Positions 7,702 through 41,788 are shown, numbered from the stretch's first letter. The stretch: 64,000 nucleotides of DNA from a virus (IMGVR_UViG_3300018422_000002:1-64000), one strand, 5' to 3'. Made by a program: numbers and translations. The notes: generated from the sequence alone by a model not told the origin.

Positions 7702-10275
7702 GTGACGTCGCGAAACACCACAAGGTGTGAGGAACGAGGGGACGGTACCGTCGGCGTCTACGCCCGGTGGGCGGCGGTAGCTGGGACGCCGCGCGTGGTC
7801 AGACGCGACGTCCCCGACCGCTACCCATCATGGGACGAACTCCGGCACAGAGGAAGGACGGCGTTCATCTTGACAGATCGTATCAGCGGACGCACAACTA
7901 CCCCGTACGGCGACGCCGCACGCGTGTACCGCGACCTGGGCTGGCGCGGCGTGCTGCCGGCGGACCTGAACGGACGACCGGGACACGTGCCGGCGGGCTT
8001 CAGCGGCGGCCACGACGTCGACCCGGACGACGACCAGGTCGCGGCGTGGGTCGCGTCGCACGGGGACCACAACGTCGCGCTGCGGCTGCCGGACGACGTG
8101 CTCGGCCTGGACGTCGACGTCTACGGCGACAAGCACGGCGATCAGACGGTGGACTACGTGGCCTACCAGCTGGGCGGCGACGGCGCGGGCGAGCTGCCGC
8201 CCACGTGGACGAGCACGGCGCGCGGCGCGGACCAGCGCAGTCGCATTCACCTGTACCGCGTGCCGGCCGGCGGGCGGTGGCGCAGCGACCTCGGGCGCGG
8301 CAGCTCCGTCGAGGTCATCCGGCGCGGCCACCGCTGGGTCCGGTGCTGGCCGTCGATCAACCGCAAGGCGCCCGGCGAGCCGGTCTACCGGTGGTACCGA
8401 CCGGACGGCACCGAGTCGGACCGGCCGCCGCGTCCGGAGGAGCTCGCCGAGCTGCCCAGCGCGTGGCTGGACGTACTGCGGGACGACGCGGCGATCCAGC
8501 TGCCCGGTCGGGCGTCGGCGGGCGACCGAGGGGATCACCGGCACGACGACGCGCCGTCCCTGGATCAGGACGGTCAACCGGTGGATCCGGATCTGATCCT
8601 CGAACGTGGCCTCGGTACGGAGGTCAACCAGCAGGTTGAGCTGTTCCGCTACATGTGCTCGCTGCGGGCACGCAACCTACGTCGGTCCGAGATGATCGCG
8701 CTCGGCATGTGCGCGCTTCAGAGGATCAGTAACGTACCGGGACACCTCAAGGGCGACTGGTGCCCCGACGACATCATCAAGCTCGTGGACCGCGTCCGAC
8801 GCGAGTACGCACCAGGTGGTGCGACGCAGCTCACGCCGGCGATGCAGGCGTTCGCCGAGCGCGTCCGCACCGGCACGATCACGGTGGACGAGCCGCCGCT
8901 CGTCGAGGAGTCGGCCACGGACCTGGGCAACAGCCTGCGGTTCGCGCGGCTCTTTCGGGACCGCGTCCGGTACGCGGCAGACGTCGAGCGGTGGTACGTC
9001 TGGGACGGTCGGCGGTGGGCGCCGGACCGCACCGGGCGCGTCGTCGACCTGACCAAGCACGTCATCGACGACGTCCGGAGGACGGCGCTCACGGAGACCG
9101 GCGACGACCAGGGACGGTGGACGCAGTGGGCGCACCAGTCGGAGTCACTAGCACGTCGCGAGGCGACGATCAAGGGCGCGCGGTCCGAGCCGGGCATCGT
9201 GGTGCAGTCGGACGTCTTCGACACCGACCCGCAGCTGCTCGTCGTGCGGAACGGCACGCTCGACCTGCTGACCGGTGAGCTACGTCCCAGCGAACCGACG
9301 GACCTGTGCAGCCAGCTCGCCGAGGTCGACTACGACCCCGACGCGACCTACGAGCGTTGGATCAGGCACGTACGGCTGCTCTGTCGCGACGACCAGGAGC
9401 TGGTGGCGTACATGGCGCGTGCGGTCGGCTACACGCTGACCGGCGACGTCGGCGCGCGGTCGTTCTTCTTCCTGGAGGGTCGCGGCTCGAACGGTAAGAA
9501 CACGTTCATCGAGCCGATCATGCAGATGATGGGGTCGTACGCGCAGACGGCGGCGCCCAGCCTGGTCGTCGGCGGCGAGGACCAGCACCCGACGGTCATC
9601 GCCGACCTACTCGGTGCGCGGCTCGTGTTCGTCGACGAGACACGCAAGGAGCAGAAGCTCAACGCGGAGCGCATCAAGGCCCTCACCGGTTCTAAGCTGC
9701 TCAAGGCGCGGCAGATGCGCAAGGACTTCTTTCAGTTCGAGGCAAGGTTCAAGCTCTGGATCGCGGGGAACGGTGCGCCTCGACTGCAGGACGACTCGGA
9801 CGGCGTCTGGAAGCGACTGCACCGCATCGTCTGTCACGGGAAGGTCACGGACGCGCAGCGCATCGACCGGTTCGGCGACGTGCTCTACCAGGAGGAGGCC
9901 GGCGGCATCCTCAACTGGGCGTTGACGGGACTGCGGGATTACCGGACGCGGCGGCTCGCGACGCCGGAGACCGTCGTCGCGGACGTGGCCAGCTTCCGGC
10001 ACGACGAGAACTACGAGCTTCAGTTCTTCGAGGAGTACGTCGAGGTCACCGGTGACCCGGCGGATCGACTCACCAGTCAGCAGCTCTTCGCGGCGTACGA
10101 GCGCTGGTGCGAGTTCAACGGCGTGCGCACACACGAGCGGAAGAACAACGTCTACCTGTCGCGGTCGGTAAGTGGGTTCGAGCTGGACGGCGTCGGTCCG
10201 GCCGAGTGGAAGATGCAGGGCAGAAAGGTCAGGGGCTTCAACGGCATCCGTTGGATCGTGTCGACCGACGACTAG
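7702..10275 (+). CDS. bifunctional DNA primase-polymerase / D5-N / P4-type SF3 helicase
   Basis: 857 aa. Prim-pol DxD (LGLDVDVYG). D5_N-like region (NSLRFARLF...WYVWDGRRW). Walker A GRGSNGKN within FFFLEGRGSNGKNTFIEPIM, and Walker B VFVDE. Confidence 0.9.
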   Translation: MTSRNTTRCEERGDGTVGVYARWAAVAGTPRVVRRDVPDRYPSWDELRHRGRTAFILTDRISGRTTTPYGDAARVYRDLGWRGVLPADLNGRPGHVPAGFSGGHDVDPDDDQVAAWVASHGDHNVALRLPDDVLGLDVDVYGDKHGDQTVDYVAYQLGGDGAGELPPTWTSTARGADQRSRIHLYRVPAGGRWRSDLGRGSSVEVIRRGHRWVRCWPSINRKAPGEPVYRWYRPDGTESDRPPRPEELAELPSAWLDVLRDDAAIQLPGRASAGDRGDHRHDDAPSLDQDGQPVDPDLILERGLGTEVNQQVELFRYMCSLRARNLRRSEMIALGMCALQRISNVPGHLKGDWCPDDIIKLVDRVRREYAPGGATQLTPAMQAFAERVRTGTITVDEPPLVEESATDLGNSLRFARLFRDRVRYAADVERWYVWDGRRWAPDRTGRVVDLTKHVIDDVRRTALTETGDDQGRWTQWAHQSESLARREATIKGARSEPGIVVQSDVFDTDPQLLVVRNGTLDLLTGELRPSEPTDLCSQLAEVDYDPDATYERWIRHVRLLCRDDQELVAYMARAVGYTLTGDVGARSFFFLEGRGSNGKNTFIEPIMQMMGSYAQTAAPSLVVGGEDQHPTVIADLLGARLVFVDETRKEQKLNAERIKALTGSKLLKARQMRKDFFQFEARFKLWIAGNGAPRLQDDSDGVWKRLHRIVCHGKVTDAQRIDRFGDVLYQEEAGGILNWALTGLRDYRTRRLATPETVVADVASFRHDENYELQFFEEYVEVTGDPADRLTSQQLFAAYERWCEFNGVRTHERKNNVYLSRSVSGFELDGVGPAEWKMQGRKVRGFNGIRWIVSTDD

Positions 10276-32703: not shown

Positions 32704-34059
32704 ATGACCAACGAGCGCGACGTGGCAGCGGCGACCGCCCGCGCGTTCGAGCAGTACATGCTCCGGCCGCCGGAGTGGAAGCCGCACCCGCACCAGGTTC
32801 CTCCGGAGGGGGACTGGTACGGCTGGCTGTTGCTCGCTGGTCGTGGTTCCGGTAAGACCGACGCGTGCTCGAACTACGTCGCGAACCACGTCAAGGGACC
32901 GCCGTGCCTCGGCGGCGCGGCCCCCCACTGGATCAACATCATCGCGCCGACGCTCGGTGACGCCGTCACCGCCTGCTACAGCGGTCCGTCCGGCATCCGC
33001 AACCACAGCCCCGACGCGAAGATGGTTCAGACCGCCGGTGGTACCATCATTCGCTGGCCGAACGGCAGCCAGGCCAAGCTGCTGGGCGCGTCCAGTCCTG
33101 AGGACGTCGAGCGACTGCGCGCCGCCGGTAACTCGTGTGTGACGTGGGCGGAGGAGCTCGCCGCCTGGCGCTACCTAGAGCAGTGCTGGCAGCAGATGCG
33201 CTTCGGCCTCCGCTCCGGTCCGCGACCTCACTGGATCGGCAGCACGACGCCGAAGCCGCGACCGCTCATTAAGAAGCTCGCCAAGGAGACGCCGCACAAC
33301 GTCGTCGTCGTACGCGCGACGACCGACGACAACCCGTACCTAGAGTCGCACGTCCGCGAGGCCCTGTACGACGAATACGGCGGCCTGCAGATCGGTCGAC
33401 AGGAACTCTACGCGGAGATCCTCGACGAGGACAAGAACGCACTCTGGCGTCGTCAGAACATCGACGACTACCGGATCAAGCCACGTGATATGCCGTCGTT
33501 CGGTAGGATCAGCGTCGGCGTCGACCCGTCCGGTGGTGCCGGCGAGCAGGGCATCATCGTCGTCGGCAAGAGCATCAGCAACTTCATCGAGGACGGTAAG
33601 ATGAAGACGCGGATCCAGGGCTACGTCCTAGACGACCGGACCGTGACCGAGTCACCGGACGGCTGGGGTCGTGCTGTCGTCCGTGCCGCCGTCGACTGGG
33701 AGGCCGACGACGTCGTCGTCGAGGTGAACTTCGGCGGTGACATGGCCGTCGCCACCATCGCCGGTGCCGCCGAGAAGCTCGGCATCAACATCCCCGTGCG
33801 TCAGACGCGCGCGTCGCGAGGCAAGCGCGTTCGCGCCGAGCCGGTCGCCGCGCTGTCCGAGCGTGGCTACTGGCATCACGTCGGTACGTTCGAGGAGCTC
33901 GAGGACCAGCTGGTCACCTGGACCGAGGAGCTCGGCTTCTCGCCGGACCGCCTCGACGCCATGGTCTGGCCGGCGTGGCACCAGCGGATGGTGTCCGCGA
34001 GTCTACGTGGTGAGGCGAAGTTCGGTGGAGGTGTCGCCCGCCTGCAGATCGTCAGGTAG
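32704..34059 (+). CDS. terL: terminase large subunit
   Basis: 451 aa. Walker A LLAGRGSGKTDA. Position upstream of the portal gene. No SD before the ATG. Confidence 0.9.
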   Translation: MTNERDVAAATARAFEQYMLRPPEWKPHPHQVPPEGDWYGWLLLAGRGSGKTDACSNYVANHVKGPPCLGGAAPHWINIIAPTLGDAVTACYSGPSGIRNHSPDAKMVQTAGGTIIRWPNGSQAKLLGASSPEDVERLRAAGNSCVTWAEELAAWRYLEQCWQQMRFGLRSGPRPHWIGSTTPKPRPLIKKLAKETPHNVVVVRATTDDNPYLESHVREALYDEYGGLQIGRQELYAEILDEDKNALWRRQNIDDYRIKPRDMPSFGRISVGVDPSGGAGEQGIIVVGKSISNFIEDGKMKTRIQGYVLDDRTVTESPDGWGRAVVRAAVDWEADDVVVEVNFGGDMAVATIAGAAEKLGINIPVRQTRASRGKRVRAEPVAALSERGYWHHVGTFEELEDQLVTWTEELGFSPDRLDAMVWPAWHQRMVSASLRGEAKFGGGVARLQIVR

Positions 34060-34112
34060 CGACGGTATCGTTGCGATCGGCGATACCGTTCACGACACAG
34101 TGGGGGACACTG

Positions 34113-34514
34113 ATGGCCGAACACACACGACAACTTGCTGAGATCGCAAAGATCCTCGTCGACACGGCGGCGACGCTGAACGCGCGAGGTTCCGAGCTGC
34201 TCGCCATGCTGATCGACGAGCTGCCGCCGGACGAGGAGCCGGCCGCGCTGACCGCCGACGTCGCGGAGGACACCACCGACGCGACGCGCATGACGGCGCT
34301 GCTCACCTGGGACAACTCCGGTACCGACAACCACGTGACGATCGACTGGGGCGGCACCGACACCGTCGACGACGACGAGCCGGCGACCGGTACGGCCTCG
34401 TTCCAGTACGCGACGGCGGGTACCTACGACATCACGGTGACCGACCTCGAGGACAACACGCGGTACGTGACCGTCGACGTCACCGTGCCGTTTACCGTCA
34501 CCGGCGCTCCGTAA
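34113..34514 (+). CDS. PKD/Ig-like domain protein
   Basis: ORF 34071..34514 trimmed to ATG 34113. ATGTASFQYATAGTYDITVTDLEDNTRYVTVDVTV resembles a PKD domain. Confidence 0.55.
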   Translation: MAEHTRQLAEIAKILVDTAATLNARGSELLAMLIDELPPDEEPAALTADVAEDTTDATRMTALLTWDNSGTDNHVTIDWGGTDTVDDDEPATGTASFQYATAGTYDITVTDLEDNTRYVTVDVTVPFTVTGAP

Positions 34515-34624: not shown

Positions 34625-35059
34625 ATGGCCGGCCAGACCAGCGGTAAGACCCGGACGACGGCGACGCCGGACAAGACCGTCACCGATACGGTGAGGACCG
34701 AGACGACGTCGCAGCGAACGACCGCGCCGACTACCGATCGACCGGCGACGACCGACCAGCGGACCGACCAGCCGGCTGCGCCGACGTCGACGCGTCCGGA
34801 ACCGTCGCGTCGCGTCGCGGTAGACGTCAGCGCGGCGACGGTCGCGACCGCGTTCGCGACCGGCGACGCGTCGCAGTCCGTTGGCTTCGTACAGCACATG
34901 CTTCGGTCGCGTGGGTTCGAGCCGGGCAACGTGAACGGCATCGCGGACCACGATACACGCGTGGCGTACGCGCGCTACCAGGAGAGCATCGGTGAGCCTC
35001 CGACCGGACTTCCGACCGCGTTCTCGCTCGACTACCTGGGGTTCGACGTCATCGGCTAG
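34625..35059 (+). CDS. protein with C-terminal peptidoglycan-binding domain
   Basis: T/P/R-rich N-terminus. C-terminal GDASQSVGFVQHMLRSRGFEPGNVNGIADHDTRVAYARYQ resembles PG_binding_1. Confidence 0.65.
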   Translation: MAGQTSGKTRTTATPDKTVTDTVRTETTSQRTTAPTTDRPATTDQRTDQPAAPTSTRPEPSRRVAVDVSAATVATAFATGDASQSVGFVQHMLRSRGFEPGNVNGIADHDTRVAYARYQESIGEPPTGLPTAFSLDYLGFDVIG

Positions 35060-35067
35060 GAGGTAAC

Positions 35068-35397
35068 GTGGCGTTCGGCTGGTTGTTCACGCTCGTCGCG
35101 TTGACGTCGTACCGTGTGACGCGACTGCTGGTCGTCGACAACTTTCCGCCGATCCTCTGGGTAAGAACTAAGTTAACCGGTGACGACGACGAGGGCGTTC
35201 GACCGGCCGCGTGGGTCCCATGGTGGCTCGAGTACCTGGCCGGCTGCTACTGGTGCGTGTCCGTGTGGGTGTCCGGTCTGGTCACTCTCGTTGTAACGTT
35301 GGCGAGCGACCTACCGTACCCGCTGCTCGTCTGGGGCGGGGCCGCCGCCGTGGCACCGTGGTTGTCGCACCTTGAGGAGTACCTGACGCGTAGGTAG
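35068..35397 (+). CDS. DUF1360-like membrane protein
   Basis: YRVTRLLVVDNFPP and CYWCVSVW motifs. Multi-pass membrane protein. Confidence 0.6.
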   Translation: MAFGWLFTLVALTSYRVTRLLVVDNFPPILWVRTKLTGDDDEGVRPAAWVPWWLEYLAGCYWCVSVWVSGLVTLVVTLASDLPYPLLVWGGAAAVAPWLSHLEEYLTRR

Positions 35398-35405
35398 GAG
35401 TGGAC

Positions 35406-37298
35406 ATGGCGTGGCCGTTCCGGCGTCGCTCCTGGACCCGTCAACACGCCGCCGCACCGTTCGTCGCGGACCCAGCGGTGACGTCGCTGGCCGACCTACC
35501 ACCGGTACCTCCCGTCGTGACCGCGACCCAGCCTGAGAGCATGACGGCCGCCGCGCTGGCGCTGACGTCGATGATCGGTGGTCGCCGCGCGCTGGTCCCG
35601 CAGTACGAGTCCTGGCAGCGTGAGCTCTGGGACTACTACGACGAGATGGGCGACTTCGGCTACGCCGTCACGTGGCGCTCGAACATGGTCTCGCGCGTTC
35701 GACTGCGGGCCGGTAAGATCGAGGCCGGCAACGACGAGCCGACCATCGTCGACGACGGCCCCGCCGCCGAGATCGTCGCCGAGCTTTCGAACGACCTGAG
35801 CAGTACCGCCGACCTAATGTCGTCGCTGTCGGTCCACCTGGACATTCCGGGTGAGGGCTGGCTCATCGGTGAGGTCATCAACGGGCGAAACCGCTGGCAG
35901 GTTCGCTCCAACGACGAACTTCGTCGTCGGGTCGAGACGTTCGAGGTGATCAGCGAGACGTCCGCGCTCGGCAACATCGAGTGGCGGCCGCTCGCGCCTG
36001 AGCACTTCATCGTCCGCATCTGGCGACCGCATAAGCGCTACCGTCACCTGCCGTACTCGCCGGCCAAGGCGGCGCGCTCGGCGATGCGTGAGCTGGAGCT
36101 CGCCAACCGTCACATTCAGGCGCAGTACCTGTCGCGCCTCGCGTCGGCCGGCGTCGTCATCTTCCCAGACGAGATCACGTTCCCGGTCCGTCCCGAGTTT
36201 CAGGACGCCGTCGACCCGTTCGTCCGCGAGTGGATCGAGACCGCGTCTGAGGCGATCAAGACGCCGGGTACCGCCGCCTCCGTCGTGCCGATCCCGATCC
36301 GCGTACCCGGCGAGTACATCGACAAGATCAAGCACATCGACTTCACGCTGAAGCTCGACGAGAAGATCATCGAGAAGCGAGACGCGGCGCGACGGGCGCT
36401 CGCGTCGATGATCAACGTCCCGACCGAGCTGCTCTTCGACGCTGGCTCGTTGAACCACTGGGGACTGTGGCAGCTCGAGGAGTCGGCGATCAAGGTGCAC
36501 ATCGCGCCGGACGTCGAGATCATGACCAACGGTCTGACCGTCGGCTACCTTCATCCACGACTGCGCGCGGAGGGCGTCGAGGACTGGGAGGACTGGGTCG
36601 TCTGGTACGACGCGTCCGAGATCATCGCGCGTCCGGACCGGTCGAACAACGTGCTCAAGGCGTACGACCGCTTTGAGGTCAACGGTAAGACGCTACGTCG
36701 AGAGATCGGACTCACCGAGGACGACGCACCCACCGACACCGAGCTGCAGGAGATGGTGCTGAAGCGACTGGCGTCGAACCCACAGATCGGCTTCCTGGTG
36801 TTGCACGAGCTGACCGGTATGCCGCTACCGGAGGAGTACCTGGCGCAGCAGCCGGACACCGACGTCACCGGCCAGCGGAACGCGAACCACCAGCGATCGG
36901 ACGCGCTTCCGGACCGGGACGACGACTACCAGGAGGGCGACGCCGGCTCGACCGGCGCCGACTCGACGAAGGCGCCGGGTGACGACCTCGACAACGTGGC
37001 GGCCCAGGTGGAGCGACGCGACGCGTTCGTGATCCTACAGGCACGATCGCAGCACGTCATGGAGTTCAACGTCACCGGCTGGAAGCTTAAGCACCCGCTG
37101 CTGTGTCAGGAGCACCTGTTCTCGTGTCCGTTCACGTACGCGACTCGCGACGGTGTGACGATCCGACCGGGAACGTCGGGCAACTACGAGTGCTTCCTCG
37201 ACGGCGGCGGCGACGTCCGGATCGGACGTCGAATCTTTGCGCGCGACGACGAGCTGCTGCCTACCGAACCGGAGCGCGTTAATGGCCACCGACGCTAG
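35406..37298 (+). CDS. portal protein
   Basis: ~630 aa, lying between terL and the protease. ATG 35406 lies 5 nt after GGAG, whereas the track start GTG 35400 abuts the SD. Confidence 0.75.
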   Translation: MAWPFRRRSWTRQHAAAPFVADPAVTSLADLPPVPPVVTATQPESMTAAALALTSMIGGRRALVPQYESWQRELWDYYDEMGDFGYAVTWRSNMVSRVRLRAGKIEAGNDEPTIVDDGPAAEIVAELSNDLSSTADLMSSLSVHLDIPGEGWLIGEVINGRNRWQVRSNDELRRRVETFEVISETSALGNIEWRPLAPEHFIVRIWRPHKRYRHLPYSPAKAARSAMRELELANRHIQAQYLSRLASAGVVIFPDEITFPVRPEFQDAVDPFVREWIETASEAIKTPGTAASVVPIPIRVPGEYIDKIKHIDFTLKLDEKIIEKRDAARRALASMINVPTELLFDAGSLNHWGLWQLEESAIKVHIAPDVEIMTNGLTVGYLHPRLRAEGVEDWEDWVVWYDASEIIARPDRSNNVLKAYDRFEVNGKTLRREIGLTEDDAPTDTELQEMVLKRLASNPQIGFLVLHELTGMPLPEEYLAQQPDTDVTGQRNANHQRSDALPDRDDDYQEGDAGSTGADSTKAPGDDLDNVAAQVERRDAFVILQARSQHVMEFNVTGWKLKHPLLCQEHLFSCPFTYATRDGVTIRPGTSGNYECFLDGGGDVRIGRRIFARDDELLPTEPERVNGHRR

Positions 37299-39795
37299 TC
37301 ACACCGGCGCGATGATCGCGCTGGTGCCGTCTGAGGCGGATCTCGACCGCCTCGTGGTCGACGGCGGTGAACCGCGTGACGAGCTACACCTGACGCTCTA
37401 CTACCTTGGTGACGCGGCCGACGTCGACGACGAGGTACGTAGGAGCATGATCACGGCGATCGGTAGCAAGATCACCGATCGCGATGAGCAGCCCGTTCAC
37501 GCGGTCGCGTTCGGCGTCGCCCAGTGGAACCCGACGAGCGACGACCCCGCGTGGGTGCTCAACGTCGGTGACTCGCCAGAGGGTGAGTCGTTGGGTTACG
37601 TCCGTGGTATGGTCGGTGAGGCGCTGTACGACGGTGGGATCGACGTCAAGATGCCGATCCAGCACACACCGTGGCAGCCGCACATCTGCCTCATCTACTC
37701 GGCCGATCAGGATCGGCACGCTGACCTACTGCGTCGCCTCGGTGATGTGACCTTTGATCGTGTAAGACTTGCGTTCGGCGGTGAGGTTACGAACCTGCCG
37801 CTGGGACGTGCTGCTACCGTAGCCTCGACGTCAGGAGGTACCATCGTGCCGTGGCACATCGTCCAGGGTCACGCCGAGTGCCCCGAGGGAAGCCCGTGGG
37901 CCGTCGTGAAGGACGCCGACGGTTCGGTGGCGGGCTGTCACGCGTCCGAGGCCGCCGCGAACGACCAGCTCGCCGCGCTGTACGCGTCCGAGAACGAGGC
38001 CACCGTGACCGACTCGATCGCCTACGTCGGTGAGACAGGTCCCGAACTAACCATGCCACCCGTCAGGACGTACGTCACACCCGTCGTCACCAACACGGCG
38101 ACGGCCACGGTCGCCGCTGCCGAGACGCTCGCATGCGCGACCGACGACTGTCCCGAGGGCCACCGGCGACTGCCGAACGGCGAGTGCCTGTCGCCCGAGG
38201 AGTACGCGACGCGCGCCGCGTGGCACGGCGTCCTCGTCGTCGAGGGCGTCACGACCGGCGACGGTCGCGAGTTCGGCGTCGACGCGCTGACCTGGGCGGA
38301 CAACGCGCTGCTTCGCTGGCAGAAGGAGGGCTCGCACGGCGGCGACCACGACGTGACGGTGTCCGTCGGTCGGATCGACGAGGTGTGGCGCGTCGGTAAC
38401 CAGGTCCGAGGTCGCGGCATGTTCGACATCGAGTCCGCCGACGGCTTCGAGATCGCACGACGCATGAAGGACAACTTCGCCGGTGGCATCTCGATCGACG
38501 CCGACGACATCCAGGACGCCGACGTCGAGTTCGTCTGGGCCGAGAACCCGGAGGGCGTCGACGAGGACGACCCACTGCTGATGCTCTTTGGTCGACCGGA
38601 GAAGGTCATCTACAACGGAGGTCGCGTTCGCGCGGCCACGCTGTGCGACATCCCGGCGTTCGTCGAGGCACGCATCCAGCTCGGCGTACCGGACGACGCG
38701 CTCATCTCTAGTGTGGTGAGCACGACCATCTCACCGGCCGTCGTCCTCGCGCACCAGACGGAGACGACCGACGGACCGTGGGACGCGACCGCGTGGCGGC
38801 GACTTCCCAACATCATGCCGTTGGCACAGGCTCGACAGGCGTACGCCTGGGTCGACGAGCCGGTCGGTGAACGCGTCGGAAAGATCAACTGTGACTACCT
38901 ACATCACGAGGTTCACGACGGTAAGGTACTCGGCGCGAACCTGACCGCGTGTGCCGTCGCCATCGCCACACTGCGAACCTCGGCGCACGGTCCTGAGGAC
39001 CGAGCCGCGATCTACGCGCACCTCGCACAGCACCTGCGCGACGCCGGCCAGGAGCCACCGCCGCTGGACGAGACCGACGCGGTGACCGCCGCGATCACGC
39101 TGGACGCGTGGCGACCGGAGCGCGCGTGGTTCGAGGATCCGCAGTTCTCGGTGCACACCGGCATCACGGTGACGGACGAGGGCCGCGTCTACGGACACGC
39201 CGCACCGTGGGGCGAGTGCCACATCGGTCACCAGCAGGAGTGCATCACGCTACCGCGCGAGGACGCGCACCCGTACTTCATGACCGGTGAGGTCGTCTGC
39301 GCCGACGGCTCACGCGTAGGCGTCGGACAGATCACGGTCGGAACCGGACACGCGCCGCTGGGCTACCGCGCGTCGCACGCGGCGGAACACTACGACAACA
39401 CGGGCGCGGCCGTCGCCGACGTCACCGTGGGCAACGACCAGTTCGGACTCTGGGTCGCCGGTGCGATCCGCCCGTCCGTGGCCGCGTCGCGCGTTCACGA
39501 GCTGCGTGCGTCCGGTCGACTGTCCGGCGACTGGCGTCGCATCGGAGGTAAGCTGCGTCTCGTCGGCCTACTGGCCGTCAACGTCCCGGGCTTCCCGCTG
39601 TCGCCACCGCGTGCACGCGTCGCGTCCGGAGCACCGCTGGCGCTGGTCGCGGCCGGTGCCGGTGCCGCACTGGGACCGGGTAACCGCATGGTCGAGCTCA
39701 CCGAGGACGACCTCAACCGCGAGGCGATGCGACGCGTCATGAACGTGCTCGCGACGCGTGTACGCCGGAACGAACACGAGATGGAGGGAGCGTAG
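37282..39795 (+). CDS. capsid maturation protease/scaffold-like fusion with N-terminal 2H-phosphoesterase (LigT)-like domain
   Basis: ATG 37282. N-terminus has HLTL and PHICL motifs ~130 aa apart. The middle and C-terminus resemble prohead protease regions (position-based call). Confidence 0.65.
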   Translation: MATDASHTGAMIALVPSEADLDRLVVDGGEPRDELHLTLYYLGDAADVDDEVRRSMITAIGSKITDRDEQPVHAVAFGVAQWNPTSDDPAWVLNVGDSPEGESLGYVRGMVGEALYDGGIDVKMPIQHTPWQPHICLIYSADQDRHADLLRRLGDVTFDRVRLAFGGEVTNLPLGRAATVASTSGGTIVPWHIVQGHAECPEGSPWAVVKDADGSVAGCHASEAAANDQLAALYASENEATVTDSIAYVGETGPELTMPPVRTYVTPVVTNTATATVAAAETLACATDDCPEGHRRLPNGECLSPEEYATRAAWHGVLVVEGVTTGDGREFGVDALTWADNALLRWQKEGSHGGDHDVTVSVGRIDEVWRVGNQVRGRGMFDIESADGFEIARRMKDNFAGGISIDADDIQDADVEFVWAENPEGVDEDDPLLMLFGRPEKVIYNGGRVRAATLCDIPAFVEARIQLGVPDDALISSVVSTTISPAVVLAHQTETTDGPWDATAWRRLPNIMPLAQARQAYAWVDEPVGERVGKINCDYLHHEVHDGKVLGANLTACAVAIATLRTSAHGPEDRAAIYAHLAQHLRDAGQEPPPLDETDAVTAAITLDAWRPERAWFEDPQFSVHTGITVTDEGRVYGHAAPWGECHIGHQQECITLPREDAHPYFMTGEVVCADGSRVGVGQITVGTGHAPLGYRASHAAEHYDNTGAAVADVTVGNDQFGLWVAGAIRPSVAASRVHELRASGRLSGDWRRIGGKLRLVGLLAVNVPGFPLSPPRARVASGAPLALVAAGAGAALGPGNRMVELTEDDLNREAMRRVMNVLATRVRRNEHEMEGA

Positions 39796-39796
39796 C

Positions 39797-39937
39797 ATGT
39801 GTAACTGTCGTAAGAGGCGTCGTCCGGTACTGACGCCGCAGGAGGTACCCACACCGGTTCCCGCGACGTCCACCGTCGCACCGGCCGTCACCGCCGGCGG
39901 GCAGCCTACCCCGGTACCCTCACCGGAGCGACGTTAG
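39797..39937 (+). CDS. small basic/Pro-rich protein
   Basis: 46-aa ORF, not in the track. ATG lies 1 nt after the upstream stop. Confidence 0.4.
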   Translation: MCNCRKRRRPVLTPQEVPTPVPATSTVAPAVTAGGQPTPVPSPERR

Positions 39938-40003
39938 CCTGTTAGTCTGCAACATATAGAGTCAAGCGGGAGTGCCCGCACGCTCTTCATCTAGGAGGTA
40001 GGT

Positions 40004-41788
40004 ATGGGCGACAAGCCCGAGGAGCTGGTGCACGTCCCGCAGGACCTCACGCTCGTCAGCGACGCGGAGCTCGAGAGCTACGGGACCCAGGCGGTTGCCG
40101 AGTTCGATCGTATCAACGCCATCGCGGACGTTACCTCCGACACCATCCAGTACGGCCTGCGACTCGCCGACGACATCGACCGCGTTCGCGCCGAGGTGGC
40201 CGCGCGTAACGCCCGCGTCGCGCAGCAGGCCGAGGCGAGCCGGGCTAAGCTGCTCAAGGATCAGGCGAACCTGCAGGCTCGCGTTCACGGTGCTGACGGC
40301 GACGCTACCGGCACGCAGACGTCGCCGGACAAGAGCGCGCCCGTCGACGTCGAGGCCATCGCCGCTGCCGCCGCGCGAGGTGTGACCTCCGCGATGGTCA
40401 ACGTGCTGGGTGACCGCGTCGCCGGTCGTGCGCTGACCCAGGTGATCGAACGTCCGTCGCTCGCCGACGCACGTCAGTTCGCACCGCAGGGCGCCGAGGC
40501 ACCGCCGGCTCGACTGTCCGTCACCGCCAGCGTCGACATCCCGGGCGTCGCACGCGGCGAGGGCGTCAACGACCTCGAGCGTATGGTCGACCTGTTCCAG
40601 CGCAAGGCCAAGTCGATGCCGGTCACCAGCGGCAACGAGAACTACCAGCTCGTAGCCTCGATCCGCAACGAGTATGAGCACACCATCGACGATCGCACCT
40701 CGCCGGCCGCCGTGGACGAGCTCATCAAGCACATTACGTCGAGCGACCGGAAGGACGCGCTGGTCGCGGGCGGCGGCTGGTGCGCCCCGTCGGAGATCCG
40801 CTACGACTTCTTCAACATCGCCTGCGAGGACGGTCTCATCGACGTGCCGACGTTCGGCGTGTCGCGTGGCGGCATCTCGTTCCCGACCTCGCCGTCGCTG
40901 GCCGACGTCTTCGGTACGACCAACCAGGCGTTCGGTGGGTTCAGCGTCTCGTTCAACAACAGCTCGATCCCGTGGCTGTGGACCGAGGCCGACGACATCG
41001 CCACCGTCACCGGTGCACCGAACAAGCCGTGCATCCGCGTCCCATGTCCTACCTTCAGCGAGGAGCGACTGGAGTGTTACGGCGTCTGCGTCACCGCCGG
41101 TAACCTCACCGACGACGCGTACCCCGAGGCCACGCGTAACTTCCTGCAGCTGATCATGTCCGCGCACGCGCACGCGATGAACGGACGACTGATCTCGCTG
41201 ATGGCGGCGCGGTCGACGGCGTCCATCGACACCGGTGGGTTCGCCGTGACCGGACAGCCGGTCTACCAGCAGGTGTACGGCGGTCTGTCGCTCGCGGCTA
41301 CCGACTACCGCGCCCGCTACGGCATGTGTCAGGACGACGTCCTCGAGGCGGTCGCGCCCTTCTGGGTCAAGGACACCATCAAGGCCGACCTCGCGTGGCG
41401 CAACGGCGTCGAGGTGCGACAGATCTCGGACGCCGAGGTCAACCAGCACTTCGCCGCGCTGAACATCCGCGTCCAGTGGGTCAACGACTGGCAGGTGCGC
41501 GGCGCCGGTCAGTTCGGTAACGCGACCGCGATGACCGCGTGGCCGACCTCCGCGATCTTCATGCTGTACGCCGCCGGTACGTTCATCCAGGGTAACGGCC
41601 TCGACCTGAACCTGGGCGTCGTCCGTGACAGCGTGCTCAACGCCGAGAACGACCACACCGCCGCCTGGTCCGAGGAGTGTCACCTGATCGCCCGCGTCGG
41701 CCACGAGTCGCGCAGGTACACGATCAACTTCTGCGTCAACGGTAAGACCGGTGCGCAGCTCGCCTCGACCAGTGGTTGCAACCTGTAG
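40004..41788 (+). CDS. major capsid protein (with N-terminal coiled-coil delta/scaffold-like region)
   Basis: 594 aa. AGGAGG upstream. GGGWCAPSE motif. Position after the protease. Confidence 0.8.
   Translation: MGDKPEELVHVPQDLTLVSDAELESYGTQAVAEFDRINAIADVTSDTIQYGLRLADDIDRVRAEVAARNARVAQQAEASRAKLLKDQANLQARVHGADGDATGTQTSPDKSAPVDVEAIAAAAARGVTSAMVNVLGDRVAGRALTQVIERPSLADARQFAPQGAEAPPARLSVTASVDIPGVARGEGVNDLERMVDLFQRKAKSMPVTSGNENYQLVASIRNEYEHTIDDRTSPAAVDELIKHITSSDRKDALVAGGGWCAPSEIRYDFFNIACEDGLIDVPTFGVSRGGISFPTSPSLADVFGTTNQAFGGFSVSFNNSSIPWLWTEADDIATVTGAPNKPCIRVPCPTFSEERLECYGVCVTAGNLTDDAYPEATRNFLQLIMSAHAHAMNGRLISLMAARSTASIDTGGFAVTGQPVYQQVYGGLSLAATDYRARYGMCQDDVLEAVAPFWVKDTIKADLAWRNGVEVRQISDAEVNQHFAALNIRVQWVNDWQVRGAGQFGNATAMTAWPTSAIFMLYAAGTFIQGNGLDLNLGVVRDSVLNAENDHTAAWSEECHLIARVGHESRRYTINFCVNGKTGAQLASTSGCNL

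Follow-up and report, generated by a model that had tools for sequence, protein, structure and literature searches.

A LigT-like 2H phosphoesterase domain fused to a probable head protease/scaffold polyprotein of an uncultivated siphovirus-like phage, and its possible packaging in the capsid

Why a phage would place a phosphoesterase domain at the front of a head-assembly protein is the question raised by the viral DNA stretch IMGVR_UViG_3300018422_000002:1-64000 (hereafter the window, meaning the whole 64-kb stretch that was analyzed; GC 66.8%), which comes from a ~93-kb contig of an uncultivated siphovirus-like phage. The gene in question encodes a polyprotein of 837 amino acids (aa). It consists of an N-terminal 2H phosphoesterase domain and a probable head protease/scaffold part with modules designated D2 to D5. 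An initial annotation had placed this protein after the portal gene; it lies between the portal and major capsid protein genes. The points at issue are whether the 2H domain is genuine, whether its active site is likely to work, how widespread the fusion is, and whether the domain might be carried in the capsid.

The N-terminal domain is predicted to adopt a LigT-like 2H fold

The polyprotein and the key positions of its N-terminal domain are as follows.

37282-39795, + strand: open reading frame (ORF) of the 837-aa polyprotein (start ATG 37282-37284, stop TAG 39793-39795), with the order 2H - D2 - D3 - D4 - D5 - C-terminal helix
37303-37806, + strand: 2H phosphoesterase domain, aa 8-175, from an AlphaFold2 model, Foldseek searches against PDB and BFVD, a profile search against PDB, and conservation
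37387-37395, + strand: motif 1, H36-L-T38; HLTLYYLG starts at H36 (CAC, 37387-37389)
37663-37665, + strand: H128, nearly invariant
37681-37689, + strand: motif 2, H134-I-C136, within WQPHICLIY (H134, 37681-37683; C136, 37687-37689)

Motif 1 (H36-L-T38-L) is canonical, and motif 2 (H134-I-C136-L) has the His and carries Cys instead of Thr/Ser. The initial annotation had recognized a 2H layout in this N-terminal part, and Pfam, PHROG, profile, AlphaFold2, and Foldseek analyses all bear it out; the ~130-residue spacing that it gave for the motifs was incorrect, as H36 and H134 are 98 residues apart. Pfam family PF13563 (2_5_RNA_ligase2) matched with E=3.7e-5 and 24.2 bits, which is below the gathering score of 27, a threshold passed by many homologs of the domain. 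PHROG 2659 ('RNA ligase') matched with E=8e-27. A profile built from 63 homologs aligned both motifs with the HxT motifs of the Thermus 2'-5' RNA ligase 1iuh (E=4.8e-4), and also reached the D. radiodurans cyclic phosphodiesterase (CPDase) and E. coli LigT. A sequence search of PDB with the single 2H domain and a megablast search of the region against GenBank phages each returned no match.

The AlphaFold2 model of the domain, computed with an alignment of homologs, had a mean predicted local distance difference test score (pLDDT) of 91.7 and a predicted template modeling score (pTM) of 0.86. The fold expected by the initial annotation from comparison with LigT, AKAP18, and Acb1 was recovered: the top 41 Foldseek matches in PDB were all 2H enzymes with probability 1.00, and hit 42 had E=0.25. 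LigT ranked best (E=4e-7), followed by ASCC1, Usb1, CPDases, and Acb1 (E=3.7e-5), and the 2H matches also included the poxvirus cyclic GMP-AMP (cGAMP) phosphodiesterase, coronavirus ns2, and AKAP18. Template modeling scores (TM-scores) to PDB 2H enzymes were modest, at 0.4-0.6, and the domain is therefore assigned to a divergent 2H clade that is nearest to LigT. On the evidence of this model, a LigT-like 2H phosphoesterase fold is genuinely present over the N-terminal ~175 residues.

Membership in the Acb1 family was considered and rejected. The Acb1 model PF23474 gave no match to the domain at E<=1 in the Pfam search, and the 63-homolog profile reached Acb1 (7t26) with E=0.46; PF23474 was touched weakly only by the distant relatives GMA2 and P0077.

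The second motif is a fixed HxC in one clade

Conservation was counted over 149 aligned homologous 2H domains, which have a mean column identity of 28%.

H36: conserved in 149/149
T38: conserved in 148/149
H134: conserved in 148/149
H128: conserved in 143/149

Position 136 was Cys in 110 of these domains and Thr in 37. Every protease-fused homolog carried HxC (67/67), and the stand-alone homologs were divided between HxC (42) and HxT (37); among 137 wider representatives, 109 had Thr and 25 had Cys. As judged from these alignments, Cys136 is a fixed, derived state of one clade. The Cys noted in the initial annotation is thus real; the idea that it reflects decay, considered here, was rejected because the residue is invariant within the clade. 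We infer from the sequences that catalysis is probably retained, possibly in modified form.

The fusion is common among relatives

The 2H-protease fusion is real and common, and not unique to the window. An identical 837-aa product was called in two independent assemblies, approximately 70 of the 120 closest homologs of aa 190-837 carry an N-terminal 2H domain, and at least 67 distinct homolog clusters have an uninterrupted 2H-protease ORF. At 41 of 84 loci, mostly from IMG/VR, the 2H and protease modules lay in one uninterrupted frame. These IMG/VR relatives were found by an alignment-based scan; exact matching of window peptides against IMG/VR had retrieved none.

Where the two parts are unfused, 2H is a separate gene of 235-301 aa that is always directly upstream of the protease gene, 4-38 nucleotides (nt) from it. 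The gene order in these relatives is portal, MuF-ADP-ribosyltransferase (ART) polyprotein (with or without NUDIX or Zeta), 2H gene, protease gene, and capsid gene. The fused lineages (the window, P0103, and P0141) are without MuF/ART genes, so that 2H is the only such module that they retain, and MuF gave no Pfam match in the 837-aa protein of the window. The 2H domain shares one polypeptide with the probable head protease/scaffold modules and is encoded between the portal and capsid genes. It thereby fits the pattern of the MuF-fused and polyvalent packaged effectors of Iyer et al. (2017), in which an effector domain is joined to MuF, the portal, or another virion-embedded module and belongs to the late head genes.

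In four relatives (L004, L005, L006, and L008), the head-module polyproteins encoded between the portal and 2H genes are very large (519-1920 aa), with Phage_Mu_F joined to ADP-ribosyltransferase, NUDIX, and Zeta-toxin/AAA_33 domains. MuF/ART polyprotein genes are absent from the window, in which the portal gene is followed directly by the 2H-protease gene.

An exhaustive profile search enlarged the family to 4,569 clusters at 50% identity, 2,547 of them at E<=1e-10. The 2H domain was stand-alone in 24, N-terminal in 37, internal in 67, and C-terminal in 9 of 137 new representatives. Family proteins reach 2,462 aa, and the partners include MuF, ART, NUDIX, AAA, and Mu-like protease modules. 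Cultured actinophages also encode members: Streptomyces phage Mischief19 gp12 has the order MuF - 2H (HxC) - D3 - D5, Gordonia phage Kwekel gp17 has D5 ... 2H (HxT), Gordonia phage GMA2 Orf10 has X - 2H with a C-terminal 2H domain, and mycobacteriophage ScottMcG gp92 is a stand-alone 2H protein. The fusions in cultured actinophages are annotated in GenBank as 'RNA ligase' or 'capsid maturation protease and MuF-like fusion protein'.

A predicted internal start and a linker motif lie at the 2H-protease junction

Two elements follow the 2H domain directly.

37813-37827, + strand: linker 1 motif A-T-V-A-S, aa 178-182, directly after 2H; candidate prohead-protease site
37834-37848, + strand: putative internal ribosome-binding site and start at the D2 N-terminus, with GGAGG at 37834-37838, 7 nt, and in-frame GTG at 37846-37848 (V189)

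In 10 of 10 fused loci with a short junction, the GGA-GGT codons were invariant and the codons on either side varied; the internal start codon was GTG in nine of these loci and ATG in one. The protease gene of unfused orthologs starts at the position of the internal GTG. A GGAGG with an in-frame start was present in the 2H-D2 junction of 33 of the 41 fused ORFs, nearly always at the D2 N-terminus. These sequences point to a nested second product, a 649-aa protease/scaffold protein that would lack the 2H domain. Such an arrangement would resemble lambda C/Nu3 and would determine how many copies of the 2H domain each procapsid receives.

The linker 1 motif is kept as [AV]-T-[VLI] in fused homologs, with synonymous codons varying. 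A broader pattern defined after the fact, [ALVIT]-[VT]-A-[AS], is matched at exactly four sites of the polyprotein (ATVAS 178-182, ATVAA 275-279, AVTAA 600-604, and LVAAG 788-792). All four occurrences lie within 132 predicted disordered residues; shuffled sequences average 1.2 occurrences. A similar motif brackets the domain in stand-alone relatives, where it is found just before 2H in 62 of the 72 that have an N-extension, and as [VI]-T-A-A-G just after 2H, ahead of a ~70-aa C-extension. From this distribution, the linker motifs are inferred to be candidate prohead-protease sites at which the 2H domain would be excised. In capsid proteins of the clade, V/L-T-A-S-x-D-I-P is conserved near aa 173, behind an N-terminal coiled-coil region; this may be a delta-domain cleavage site that shares the polyprotein linker motif.

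The capsid protein of the window has an N-terminal region of ~170 aa made up of coiled-coil and low-complexity sequence, followed by S-V-T-A-S-V-D-I-P. Many stand-alone 2H proteins (P0006, P0013, P0020; L004 4235-5140) have an N-extension of 50-80 aa, and the conserved ~70-aa C-extension, which follows V-T-A-A-G, reads NLKDYWTK..GLAKW..HPWT.LY.HLKK.MP..MAKR....WYH.VKGHWP. Both extensions may serve in capsid targeting or docking and be lost during maturation.

The fusion partner is probably a head protease/scaffold

The layout of the C-terminal part was derived from an AlphaFold2 model of aa 190-837 (pLDDT 75.6) and from hidden Markov models (HMMs) built from homologs.

37849-37992, + strand: D2, aa 190-237, a small beta3-alpha domain (AlphaFold2 pLDDT ~97)
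37996-38136, + strand: linker 2, aa 239-285 (47 residues), disordered (AlphaFold2 pLDDT <50), which holds A-T-V-A-A at 38104-38118
38146-38697, + strand: D3, aa 289-472, beta-rich (AlphaFold2 pLDDT ~90), with invariant H352 and S404
38725-39072, + strand: D4, aa 482-597, an alpha/beta module (AlphaFold2 and homolog HMMs)
39079-39093, + strand: A-V-T-A-A of linker 3, a short linker at aa 598-607
39121-39582, + strand: D5, aa 614-767, a 'head maturation protease' module (phrog_18402, E=3.9e-41)
39583-39792, + strand: linker 4, aa 768-804, disordered, with invariant L-V-A-A-G at 39643-39657, and the C-terminal segment after it
39703-39762, + strand: C-terminal amphipathic helix, aa 808-827 (AlphaFold2)

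For D5, 'head maturation protease' is the name that both PHROGs and SEA-PHAGES (for cultured actinophages) use. Its invariant H703 (HYDNTG) and S748 (GRLSGDW) are candidate catalytic residues, and the module is a stand-alone 333-aa protein in GMA2 (orf12). In a Foldseek search with aa 190-837 as a whole, T4 gp21 was matched with probability 0.97 (E=0.02, TM-score 0.46) along with herpesvirus proteases, matches that could not be assigned to one module. The head protease/scaffold context proposed by the initial annotation is upheld by the PHROG head-maturation-protease modules and by these weak fold matches, and we regard the C-terminal partner as probably a head protease/scaffold polyprotein.

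Other searches placed the modules less firmly. Pfam S78 and other protease families had no match in the window protein or in 62 homologs, NCBIfam had no match to the polyprotein, and PDB searches with the aa 191-837 sequence and the aa 190-837 profile had none either. Comparison of the D2-D5 profiles with HK97 gp4 by hhalign gave nothing significant; D5 had a weak, non-significant local match to it in the hairpin-helix region. D3 matches only PHROGs of unknown function, and its pattern resembling HK97-type prohead proteases was read by eye, with no support from hhalign; a comparison of D3 with D5 by hhalign was also not significant. D3 and D5 each combine an invariant His/Ser pair (H352/S404 and H703/S748, respectively) with a succession of hairpin, helix, and strand that recalls HK97-type prohead proteases, and the polyprotein may therefore carry two protease-like modules.

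D2 comprises ~48 residues with a conserved His/Cys pattern (W-H..H-x-E-C ... G-C-H) and has no Pfam or PHROG family match. It follows the 2H domain in the window and precedes it in P0052, so that the two domains go together in both orders; D2 may have a role in metal binding or docking. At the other end of the protein, L788, A790, A791, and G792 of linker 4 are invariant in 62 homologs, and the C-terminal helix is likely a capsid-binding or scaffold tail.

The 2H domain as proposed capsid cargo

Two observations on gene organization favor packaging of the 2H domain. Its place in the head module is constant, just ahead of the protease modules, both as a fused domain and as a gene of its own, and the same family has repeatedly been fused to MuF, ART, NUDIX, and protease modules. 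For one relative, GMA2, mass spectrometry of virions identified 18 orf10 peptides (Dyson et al. 2015, PMC4524720, Table S5). The family HMM locates a 2H domain at aa 724-876 of GMA2 Orf10 (E=1.3e-24), and the peptide SEVGDYDAYTPHITAVTGQQAR maps to aa 825-846, inside this domain, and spans the second HxT motif. This is direct, if thin, evidence that a 2H-family domain is physically in GMA2 virions. Packaging with the head, as suggested in the initial annotation, thus receives indirect support through a homolog.

We propose, as the best-supported reading, that the 2H domain is capsid-packaged cargo: the longer of two nested products would bring it into the head, where it would be released and kept beside the DNA until its ejection, and it would work in the next host from time zero. 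To this reading we give slightly less than an even chance. The gene would give rise to the 837-aa 2H fusion (from ATG 37282) and the 649-aa protease/scaffold (from GGAGG-GTG 37834-37848), and both would co-assemble into the procapsid through their shared C-terminal part. Cleavage of the V/T-A-A/S linker motifs by the prohead protease would release a free, folded 2H domain of ~19 kDa, which would be retained because it is too large to exit the shell. The freed domain would stay with the DNA, as T4 internal proteins do, and would be ejected into the next host, where it would hydrolyze its substrate, a phosphodiester or a cyclic phosphate, ahead of any expression of phage genes. Our best guess at this substrate, by analogy, is oligonucleotide immune signals (those of the cyclic oligonucleotide-based antiphage signaling system [CBASS], those of type III CRISPR, or 2'-5'-linked ones), which we favor because of the Acb1 analogy and a published prediction; RNA 2',3'-cyclic phosphate ends are the second choice.

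Several points weigh against this proposal. For this phage, as for all protease-fused members, the case is purely computational. The GMA2 evidence consists of a single 2H peptide, and the same preparation contains N-terminal capsid-protein peptides, so that procapsids or uncleaved forms may have been present and immature particles are a possible source. The fusion event may simply have left the internal start behind as a relic. The linker motif was defined post hoc, and similar tetrapeptides occur also inside the capsid protein fold. The 2H domain is nearer to LigT than to Acb1, whose Pfam model it does not match, and the replacement of the second Thr by Cys may weaken or alter its activity. 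Finally, delivery presupposes that a folded 19-kDa protein passes through a siphovirus tail.

Alternative explanations

An action on RNA ends, rather than on small-molecule signals, is unlikely overall and nonetheless a serious alternative, because LigT and Usb1 are the nearest folds. As a LigT-like cyclic phosphodiesterase or a Usb1-like RNase, the domain would either heal tRNA or mRNA 2',3'-cyclic phosphate ends left by anticodon nucleases of the host or trim RNAs of the host. LigT, CPDase, and Usb1, rather than Acb1, gave the best structural and profile matches, SEA-PHAGES records call the family 'RNA ligase', and Iyer et al. favored an RNase role by analogy with PBECR-MuF fusions (PMC5512222). 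The same authors, however, never saw these 2H versions with RNA ligases (PMC5512222), and a cyclic phosphodiesterase alone leaves a 2'-phosphate end that needs further repair. The expected partners were also missing: no RNA ligase or polynucleotide kinase was found among the 19 ORFs scanned in the 64-kb window, which covers about two thirds of the ~93-kb contig, and no tRNA gene anywhere in the window. Under a second alternative, which is quite unlikely, the 2H domain would act in the producing cell as a late antidote, destroying a cyclic-oligonucleotide signal that the prohead protease itself sets off, and its packaging would be incidental. According to a preprint (Hobbs & Kranzusch 2026, PMC12991175), CBASS CD-NTases are switched on when prohead proteases cleave them, and Acb1, also a 2H enzyme, degrades CBASS signals. 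Encoding on the same mRNA or polypeptide as the protease would give antidote and trigger the same timing and dose. In line with this, 2H lies directly upstream of, or fused to, protease modules in the window and most relatives, and lineages that have lost the MuF/ART genes still keep it beside the protease. The idea presupposes a protease-sensing CBASS in the hosts of these phages, however, and the family is also fused to MuF/ART/NUDIX without a protease or located C-terminally on a structural protein (GMA2), whose virion peptide indicates physical incorporation. An antidote role is compatible with the packaging model and does not exclude it. A combination of the two, in which a cis antidote quenches the late CBASS alarm in a proportion governed by the nested internal start, the freed domain is packaged as well and forestalls signaling in the next host, and HxC reflects an altered substrate range, has in our estimation only a slim chance of being correct.

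It is very unlikely that the 2H fold is a non-catalytic, structural, scaffolding, or protease-regulating module of the procapsid in which Cys marks lost activity. The HxC motif in all 67 fused homologs, in place of HxT/S, and the Pfam score under the gathering threshold would fit such a role, but H36, T38, and H134 each differ in no more than one of the 149 domains, and H128 is kept in 143 of them, against a mean column identity of 28%. Invariance of the Cys in the clade is unlike drift, and, this residue apart, the HxT and HxC forms resemble each other, with stand-alone proteins in both groups. Least credible of all is an artifactual fusion, in which a sequencing or assembly error erased a stop between two genes. 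The 4-38 nt between the two genes of relatives and the intact Shine-Dalgarno sequence and start codon that persist at the junction would be compatible with such an error; the identical ORF in two assemblies and the same uninterrupted ORF in at least 67 homolog clusters and 41 loci led us to reject it.

Genomic neighborhood of the fusion gene

The head module surrounding the fusion gene is arranged as follows.

32704-34059: terminase
34071-34514: small ORF
34625-35059: peptidoglycan-binding protein (PG_binding_1), between terminase and portal
35068-35397: DUF1360 membrane protein, between terminase and portal
35400-37298: portal
37271-37284, + strand: full-length start signal of the polyprotein, read directly from the sequence, with GGAG at 37271-37274, 7 nt, and ATG at 37282-37284
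40004-41788: major capsid protein (NCBIfam MCP_Sipho, E=2.7e-160)

The polyprotein ORF overlaps the portal gene, whose stop codon is TAG 37296-37298. Since it starts within the final codons of the portal gene, the two are likely translationally coupled. The portal of the window aligns with the 541-aa portal of a relative over aa 48-486 only; aa 487-632 (36858-37295) are an extra C-terminal part of ~145 aa that begins with an acidic disordered stretch and continues with a Cys/His-containing segment (…HPLLCQEHLFSCPFTY…YECFLDGGGDVRIGRRIF). Portals are 603-630 aa long in fused lineages versus 530-541 aa in unfused ones. The gap between the polyprotein and capsid genes (39796-40003) is 208 nt, and relatives hold a gene of 34-55 aa there; the sole ORF of the window in this gap, 39758-39937 (59 aa, GTG start), overlaps the end of the polyprotein gene.

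Upstream of the portal, relatives (L014) have a Phage_r1t_holin gene at the spot occupied in the window by the PG_binding_1 and DUF1360 genes, and lysis-type genes have therefore apparently been inserted in the head module. Elsewhere, the window encodes an 857-aa PrimPol - D5_N - DUF5906 primase/helicase (7702-10275). Relative L008 encodes at 1-372 an SsgA-family protein, an actinomycete sporulation/cell-division factor, and filamentous actinomycetes are therefore the suggested hosts for at least part of the clade.

Relation to known systems and significance

The nearest known enzymes are those of the LigT family (E. coli LigT 5ldm, T. thermophilus 1iuh, and D. radiodurans CPDase 5h7e), which gave the best fold and profile matches. 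Both of their catalytic motifs align with those of the window domain (LHLTL.YLG and PH[IV]T/C), the length of ~175 aa is similar, and metal-independent chemistry is expected of the window domain. Identity is 16-20%, however, with TM-scores of 0.5-0.6 and Cys for Thr in motif 2 of the window, and LigT is a free cytoplasmic enzyme, whereas the window 2H domain is embedded in a virion-assembly polyprotein.

The logic of the proposed cargo has parallels in better-known phages. T4 internal proteins and Alt are cargo that is targeted into the procapsid, undergoes trimming by the prohead protease there, and stays with the DNA until ejection, and lambda C/Nu3 and P2 gpO are nested protease/scaffold genes. 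None of these has a sequence relationship to the window protein. T4 cargo carries a short capsid-targeting peptide, whereas in the window phage a whole protease/scaffold polypeptide is proposed to serve; the two in-frame products from one ORF of lambda C/Nu3 resemble the predicted nested products, which would set stoichiometry.

Acb1 (phage T4/FBB1, 7t26; PF23474) is likewise a phage-encoded 2H fold, with an HxT/HxT tetrad and metal-independent two-step cleavage via a cyclic phosphate. Despite its Foldseek match to the window model, it ranks below LigT and Usb1 (TMq 0.41-0.42), and it is a free protein of ~150 aa with a C-terminal lid that is not found in head proteins.

Domains of the 2H type in phage 'polyvalent', MuF-fused, and portal-fused head proteins were described by Iyer, Burroughs, Anand, de Souza, and Aravind (2017, PMC5512222), and packaged, injected 2H domains were proposed in 2017 and 2022 (PMC5512222, PMC9503650) to act as RNases or to degrade 2'-5' oligoadenylate or cyclic-nucleotide defense signals. 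The fusion of 2H to head proteins and the anti-signaling hypothesis are therefore already published, and the family is already known, because of these predictions and the GenBank fusions listed under other names. Our proteins belong to the same family and follow the same genomic logic, and MuF-2H, MuF-ART-2H, and NUDIX...2H relatives were recovered here. The window protein differs in being without MuF, portal, or ART, with 2H as the N-terminus of a protease/scaffold that has a retained internal start; in the two papers, fusion to a capsid-processing peptidase was reported only for Nudix, and 2H fusions were described for MuF and portal. Among cultured phages, Mischief19 gp12 is the closest in design, with the same 2H - D3 - D5 order, the same Cys, and 49.7% identity in the 2H domain, but it has a MuF module that the window protein lacks. 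Kwekel gp17 differs in its D5...2H order and HxT motif, and GMA2 Orf10, a virion protein by mass spectrometry, in its C-terminal 2H domain and separate protease gene. New here are the clade-fixed HxC, the MuF-less N-terminal fusion with its internal start, and the linker motif bracketing 2H, together with the link to existing virion proteomics and a possible connection to protease-sensing CBASS.

The cultured Mischief19 gp12 and GMA2 Orf10, the active-site residues, the candidate cleavage sites, and the predicted nested product provide handles on the 2017 prediction. The family runs to thousands of clusters. Should the domain prove to be both active and packaged, phages of Actinobacteria would as a rule have a phosphodiesterase directed at nucleotides or RNA ready-made in their capsids. 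This enzyme would be at work ahead of phage gene expression, with a timing unlike that of all characterized signal-degrading anti-defense enzymes, such as Acb1 and Apyc1.

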